Shown here: piece by piece, positions 52,018 to 52,473 of the stretch
Numbering within the stretch: the first letter of the stretch is position 1
Layout: each line of letters opens with the position of its first letter
Sequence record: PZ445134.1
Source: a phage
Reading direction: 5' to 3' (one strand)
DNA: 64,000 nucleotides
Position numbers and translations under genes: made by a program
The notes under the pieces: generated by a model
The model's input: only the letters and a program-made list of their open reading frames with translations
Databases searched by the model: none
Told to the model about the DNA's origin: nothing

Positions 52018-52473
52018 TTATTTTAGATCTTCGGCCCAATCTAGTTTTAAGGGTTCTTTGTATTCACGGTCGAGAATAACCGGAATAGCTACATCACCAC
52101 TGAATGATAGTTGGCCAACGTTATATGATAACGTTATATGTGGAGTGTAGTCGTCGAAATCATGAGTAGCACCTAAAGCTCGTGCGTACTGATGACGACA
52201 TCTAAGATATTCGGAATCAAGAACTAAAACCAGTACAGCACCGTCGTCAGTTTTCCATACCTCAAGGTGTCCTGATTCGGCAACAGAATAACTACCACTA
52301 GATGTAGTATACGGTATGTTTACACGTGAATAACAAATTGTTGAATGAAGCTTTTCACGTGGTACTGGATTAGGAATTCTTAATTTGCGCTGGAGGTCTT
52401 CCAGCGCATCAAGTGTTAATTCCGAAAATTTAGCTGCGACGTAGAGGCCTTGTGAAAAGTCCTCAAATTTCAT
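52018..52473 (-). CDS. acb1: 2H-phosphoesterase family protein, 57B/Acb1-like (anti-CBASS cyclic-nucleotide phosphodiesterase candidate)
   Basis: 151 aa; two H-x-[TS] motifs (HSTICYS and HITLSY) typical of 2H phosphoesterases; located immediately upstream of 57A as T4 57B. Confidence 0.6.

Follow-up and report, generated by a model that had tools for sequence, protein, structure and literature searches.

The 57B gene in an RB69-like, T4-type phage: a clear sequence ortholog of the anti-CBASS gene acb1

Gene 57B of phage T4 encodes Acb1, a phosphodiesterase, as the preliminary description of the locus analysed here correctly stated; the enzyme is of the 2H fold and was identified by activity-guided fractionation (Hobbs et al. 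2022, Nature 605:522, PMC9117128). The T4 assignment is further backed by assays of the recombinant enzyme and by H44A/H113A mutants, and a Δacb1 phage shows a more than 300-fold loss of titre on CBASS hosts (PMC9117128). H44/T46/H113/T115 are named as the catalytic tetrad of the T4 enzyme, Y12/W74/F107/W147 as its stacking residues and E141 as the residue that reads adenine; cGG, cA4 and 3'2'-cGAMP are left uncleaved (PMC9117128). During T4 infection, cyclic-nucleotide-degrading activity is found from about 15 min (PMC9117128). Transcripts of 57B/acb1 are reported to be mainly middle and late. Independent support comes from a later transposon screen of a T4 library, where 57B/acb1 was conditionally required on a CBASS host. 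Two crystal structures represent Acb1 of Erwinia phage FBB1, 7T26 in the apo form and 7T27 as the complex with 3'3'-cGAMP. Panoptes guard systems fire once a decoy nucleotide disappears; Tevenvirinae with an intact acb1 are restricted by these systems, and escapers mutate acb1.

The window examined here is the whole 64,000-nt stretch of phage DNA (record PZ445134.1). Its last 24 kb are about 97% identical to RB69, and the source phage is assigned to the RB69-like, T4-type phages of the genus Mosigvirus, whereas T4 is a Tequatrovirus. An ORF is present at the 57B position, and the coordinates given for it in the preliminary description, 52018-52473, are exact; the strand, which was left unstated there, is the minus strand. 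The gene and its two upstream neighbors are as follows.

52018..52473, minus strand: acb1 (57B) coding sequence, a complete ORF of 151 aa, with the ATG at 52473-52471 and the TAA at 52020-52018
52471..52475, minus strand: TAATG overlap between the 57A stop and the acb1 start, read directly from the sequence
52473..52703, minus strand: 57A tail-fibre assembly chaperone, 76 aa (Pfam PF17594 GP57, 85.3 bits)
52708..53442, minus strand: gene 1, dNMP kinase, 244 aa (Pfam PF21448 DNMK, 324.7 bits)

The translated aa sequence matches the Pfam family PF23474 (Anti-CBASS protein Acb1) with 198.1 bits and an E value of 7.4e-59, where the curated cut-off is 27 bits, and the alignment extends over residues 8-149 of the protein and profile positions 1-144 of 144. 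Alignment to T4 57B (NP_049750.1, read from NC_000866), which had been proposed as a check, is gapless and shows 130/151 identities (86%) and 21 substitutions. The size of the protein is also as had been described, 151 aa compared with 152 aa in T4 57B. Among solved structures the best match is FBB1 Acb1 (7T26/7T27), with an E value of 3.5e-59 and approximately 64% identity over residues 9-148. At the sequence level there is agreement with a compact 2H phosphoesterase fold that has a C-terminal lid: identity is approximately 64% over 140 of the 144 residues of 7T26_A, and the C-terminal segment that carries W146 is present. A single-sequence AlphaFold2 model of the protein was unusable (mean pLDDT 40.9, pTM 0.31), and thus the fold assignment rests on the sequence identity to the FBB1 structure. 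A scan against NCBIfam, a library without an Acb1 model, gave no family match. From these alignments the ORF is judged to be a clear ortholog of T4 57B (Acb1), and every mark of Acb1 family membership that can be read from sequence is found in the protein.

The preliminary description had pointed to two H-x-T/S motifs, and these are found as H43-S-T45 and H112-I-T114. Of the five histidines in the protein, two head 2H-type motifs, namely HSTI (residues 43-46) and HITL (residues 112-115). However, it should be noted that the H-x-[ST] motif pair alone is weak evidence, because at least two such motifs appear in 14% of composition-preserving shuffles of the protein. When the pattern is tightened to the 2H-type form, H-hydrophobic-[ST]-hydrophobic, two copies appear in 0.3% of the shuffles. 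It is the full-length homology, not the motif pair, that is decisive for the predicted Acb1 identity.

The residues with named functions in T4 Acb1 were located in the alignment. The tetrad corresponds to H43/T45 and H112/T114, the base-stacking residues to Y11, W73, F106 and W146, the adenine-contacting residue to E140, and the C-terminal lid to about residues 144-151. Thus T4 residues Y12, H44, T46, W74, F107, H113, T115, E141 and W147 are identical in all nine cases, at the T4 position minus 1. None of the 21 differences from T4 is at Y11, H43, T45, H112, T114 or E140, and none falls on any other of the named functional residues. In an alignment of ten Straboviridae homologs with identities down to 27%, which took in T4, FBB1, phiR1-RT, Acj9, an Aeromonas phage, a Krischvirus, two Vibrio phages and KP27, no variation is seen at H43, T45, H112, T114 or Y11 and almost none at E140. 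The approximately 64% identity supports a common active site and a common compact 2H phosphoesterase fold for the FBB1 protein and the window protein, but FBB1 Acb1 has an F where T4 has W74 and the window protein has W73, and there is one extra FBB1 residue in the β-hairpin that follows this position.

Comparison of acb1 with T4 57B at the nt level gives a pN of 0.116 and a pS of 0.721 per site. The resulting omega of about 0.05 is only indicative, because dS is saturated (pS 0.72), but the gene is clearly under strong purifying selection. The present analysis itself shows that the gene is an ortholog, keeps its functional residues intact, is syntenic with T4 57B and evolves under purifying selection.

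When the protein was compared with 50,697 phage records by tblastn, matches were found in 1471 of them, with at least 80% of the protein covered in 1463. Almost all of these are T4-like phages of enterobacteria, Acinetobacter, Aeromonas and Vibrio. An identical protein (100%) is present in Escherichia phage vB_EcoM_WFL6982, a Mosigvirus, where it is labelled "hypothetical protein", and the nt sequences of the two acb1 genes display four differences, all of them silent. The Acb1 enzyme is widespread and its anti-CBASS action has been characterised, and the protein described here is already in GenBank in identical form.

The order of genes on the minus strand is 4-2-3-1-57A-57B followed by the ip locus, as in T4, with acb1 the last gene of the 4-2-3-1-57A-57B series. 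The gene that precedes gene 1 in this series encodes a gp3-like tail protein, and genes 2 and 4 lie beyond it. The T4-like position that had been claimed for the gene is borne out, as the acb1 ATG overlaps the stop codon of 57A and the T4 gene order is kept. An equivalent 4-nt overlap is found in T4, between the end of 57B at record position 74410 and the start of 57A at 74407. Since there is no intergenic space between 57A and acb1, the two genes should be co-transcribed, and they are probably translationally coupled as well. We infer that the 1-57A-57B transcription unit starts at gene 1. The preliminary description had also proposed that acb1 is expressed just before the late structural genes. 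As a statement about the map this is wrong, because acb1 lies downstream of the late genes 4, 2 and 3; as a statement about timing it holds loosely, given the activity at about 15 min and the mainly middle and late transcripts of T4. In addition, a mechanical ORF call in this region (55008-55601, 197 aa) runs past gene 4, for which the WFL6982 annotation gives 450 nt.

Possible transcription signals around the unit are listed below.

53471..53494, minus strand: putative middle-type promoter upstream of gene 1, from alignment with T4
53058..53065, minus strand: late-promoter consensus TATAAATA inside gene 1, from conservation of its position
51969..51995, minus strand: 12-bp hairpin GGAUGAUGGUGU/…AUCAUCC, 23 nt past the acb1 stop codon, without a T-run
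51975..52003, minus strand: early-type promoter-like site (GTTTACA, 17 nt, TG-n-TACTAT), from a promoter scan

A generic scan for sigma-70 promoters and terminators found 20 sites compared with 15.8 ± 4.2 expected from shuffles. These counts are not above the shuffles, and therefore only sites that are conserved with T4 were used. The putative middle-type promoter that precedes gene 1 consists of a GCTTC MotA-box core at 53494-53490, a 13-nt spacer and an extended -10 element, TGtTATAAT, at 53479-53471. Its counterpart upstream of T4 gene 1 is aaTGCTTCA-(11/12 nt)-TATAAT, with the canonical MotA box TGCTTCA, whereas the MotA-box-like element of the window is imperfect (cGCTTCt compared with the consensus TGCTT(T/C)A). 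The extended -10 element does not vary between T4, WFL6982 and the window, and the sequence TGTTATAAT upstream of gene 1 is likewise shared unchanged by these three phages.

The TATAAATA motif inside gene 1 lies upstream of both start codons, at 355 nt from the ATG of 57A and 585 nt from that of acb1. In the alignment of gene 1, it falls on the same codon in T4 and the window, with diverged flanking codons, and at the same nucleotide offset (377) in gene 1 of WFL6982. Across the whole window the motif is present seven times compared with 8.6 expected, i.e., without enrichment, and as it is no commoner than by chance, only its positional conservation counts. With this in mind, the motif may be a late promoter that feeds 57A and acb1. 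A middle-type and a late promoter would together fit the T4 data, both the activity from about 15 min and the middle and late transcripts. A divergent pair of TATAAATA motifs, one on each strand, is also seen at 55469-55491, between gene 4 (minus strand) and gene 53 (plus strand), and the same divergent arrangement between genes 4 and 53 is present in T4 and WFL6982.

A terminator scan detected no intrinsic terminator with a T-run after acb1. Instead there is the 12-bp hairpin. RNA folding of 51941-52030 (minus strand) gives -19.3 kcal/mol with a z score of -3.1, and none of 200 shuffles was as stable. The hairpin overlaps the -10 element of the early-type promoter-like site, which would serve the downstream internal-protein gene. 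The end of the acb1 unit is marked by this site. In the T4 57B-ipI spacer a hairpin over an early promoter is arranged likewise, and the early-type site is conserved there; in the window it recurs ahead of each of the three small genes that follow. The hairpin probably marks or stabilises the 3′ end of the acb1 transcript.

An explanation that takes together acb1 orthology, anti-CBASS enzyme action and middle/late transcription is very probably the right one for this locus. The substrates, the chemistry and the anti-CBASS phenotype proposed in it are those expected from the T4 and FBB1 orthologs. Most likely, acb1 encodes a small monomeric phosphodiesterase of the 2H fold. Its ligands would be cyclic di- and trinucleotides from CBASS cyclases (3'3'-cGAMP, cUA, cAAA and further signals with at least one AMP), on whose bases Y11, W73, F106 and W146 would stack, with E140 reading the adenine N6. 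Once the ligand is bound, the C-terminal lid would close over it. The ligand would be strained, and the adenosine 2'-OH would attack the 3'-5' phosphodiester. Cleavage of the 3'-5' bond 3' of adenosine would rely on the H43-x-T45/H112-x-T114 tetrad, whose two His/Thr pairs would serve as general acid and base with no metal, and the 2',3'-cyclic phosphate formed as an intermediate would be opened to give a linear product with a 3'-phosphate. This product would be inactive on the CBASS effectors (Cap4, Cap5, CapV), and abortive infection would be prevented. With acb1 transcribed together with gene 1 and 57A from middle-type and late-type promoters, the enzyme would probably be present from mid-infection. 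By analogy, the cleavage of cAAA may also blunt type III CRISPR systems employing cA3.

A role in RNA or tRNA repair was also considered, whereby the protein would be a generic 2H RNA enzyme, i.e., a LigT-like 2'-5' RNA ligase/2',3'-cyclic phosphodiesterase. LigT-type 2H phosphoesterases (PF13563) likewise have two H-x-T/S motifs and metal-independent 2',3'-cyclic phosphate chemistry; they differ in that they act on RNA ends and not on cyclic oligonucleotides. The 57B product is called "RNA ligase" in the RefSeq records for T4, RB51 and others and also in PHROG 755, and one Acinetobacter phage record names the homolog "putative RNA 2',3'-cyclic phosphodiesterase". However, the "RNA ligase" name is derived from homology and reflects only a distant similarity within the 2H superfamily. 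The one further Pfam match of the protein is a weak one to PF13563 (2_5_RNA_ligase2; E 0.026), which is consistent with shared superfamily ancestry, but the match has 15 bits against a 27-bit cut-off and is limited to residues 76-131, whereas the Acb1 model gives 198 bits end to end. With a score under the curated threshold, the protein was not placed among the LigT-type 2'-5' RNA ligases. Moreover, the T4 ortholog was shown by experiment to be the cGAMP- and cAAA-degrading activity of infected cells (PMC9117128), and an RNA-repair enzyme at this locus is therefore regarded as extremely improbable.

An Acb1 ortholog with a shifted range would be another reading of the same homology, either with cGG or 3'2'-cGAMP gained as substrates or with a spectrum narrowed to avoid Panoptes decoy-guard systems. 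The 21 substitutions leave room for kinetic or specificity differences from T4 Acb1, and selection on phages is opposed, to keep Acb1 against CBASS and to lose or alter acb1 against Panoptes. A search of the literature found no assay of an RB69-group Acb1. Against a shifted range, none of the 21 substitutions falls on the nine catalytic or base-contacting residues, and nine further homologs that are more divergent all cleaved 3'3'-cGAMP and cAAA when tested (PMC9117128). As all residues of known function are conserved, the sequence gives no hint of altered specificity, and a changed range is considered very unlikely. The same slight chance is given to an RB69-group Acb1 whose substrate spectrum or kinetics would, for example, spare the decoy nucleotide and so evade Panoptes while still defeating CBASS. 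The preferred reading remains an enzyme of the T4 type, and by analogy to other Tevenvirinae such an enzyme would make the phage visible to Panoptes guard systems, since Panoptes-type decoy-guard systems sense the loss of cyclic nucleotides.

The acb1 gene of the window is orthologous to one whose enzyme is characterised, and its phage lineage has been sequenced before; the gene is therefore already known and an ordinary finding, with little to add beyond correct annotation. In public records 57B/Acb1 is mostly named "RNA ligase" or "hypothetical protein" (T4 NC_000866, RB51, PHROG 755), and among the matches listed a phosphodiesterase label is found on one record only. The "RNA ligase" and "hypothetical" labels on 57B genes should be replaced.

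An ortholog of Acb2 (T4 Vs.4) is encoded in the same window at 37527-37793 on the minus strand. It has 88 aa, shares 64% identity with T4 Vs.4 and matches the Pfam PF24729 Acb2/Tad1 hairpin with 64.9 bits. The Acb2 sponge, like Acb1, neutralises CBASS signals, but the two are unrelated in sequence and mechanism, as Acb2 sequesters the signal and Acb1 hydrolyses it. Judged by homology, the phage carries both known T4 anti-CBASS genes, and the presence of Acb1 and Acb2 together predicts resistance to many CBASS systems and sensitivity to Panoptes decoy-guard systems.

In T4, as in the window, acb1 follows 57A with the stop/start overlap and adjoins the internal-protein (ipI) anti-defence locus. 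However, T4 and WFL6982 have a single ipI gene at this place, whereas the window has three unrelated genes of the internal-protein type. These are three tandem small ORFs directly downstream of acb1, at 51677-51940, 51341-51613 and 50972-51280 (minus strand). All start with MKT(F/Y)KEFI.E, which resembles the capsid-targeting leader of T4 IPI, IPII and IPIII, and the 11-residue leader is all that they share with one another and with the three T4 proteins. Two of the ORFs match PHROG families of "internal head protein" and the third a family of unknown function. No record of the phage collection covers at least 80% of the 1.1-kb tandem stretch, and thus the combination is mosaic. The stretch is the known hypervariable ipI anti-restriction locus, and as a region for anti-defence candidates this adjoining locus is of more interest than acb1.

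A conserved cassette is repeated in four copies at about 50905-52010 (minus strand). It consists of GTTTAC(A/T)T, 17 nt and a TAnnAT -10-like element, followed by AAAATAAAATG, and the -10-like element is overlapped by an inverted repeat. One copy is located before each internal-protein gene and one before a 61-aa ORF, and the T4 57B-ipI spacer carries the same cassette. The cassette resembles a portable module of promoter plus hairpin, through which genes could be shuffled at the ip locus.

The whole window contains only two tRNA genes, Arg-tct and Met-cat, at 49817-49973 (minus strand), compared with eight tRNAs and two small stable RNAs in T4 and with Met, Asn and Arg in WFL6982. A T4 Tk.4 ortholog, 85% identical, is found at 35437-35934 (minus strand); the T4 annotation is of a phosphatase with an A1pp motif. 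This motif, which we take to be the mark of a macro domain, may presumably matter for ADP-ribose-based defence signalling.
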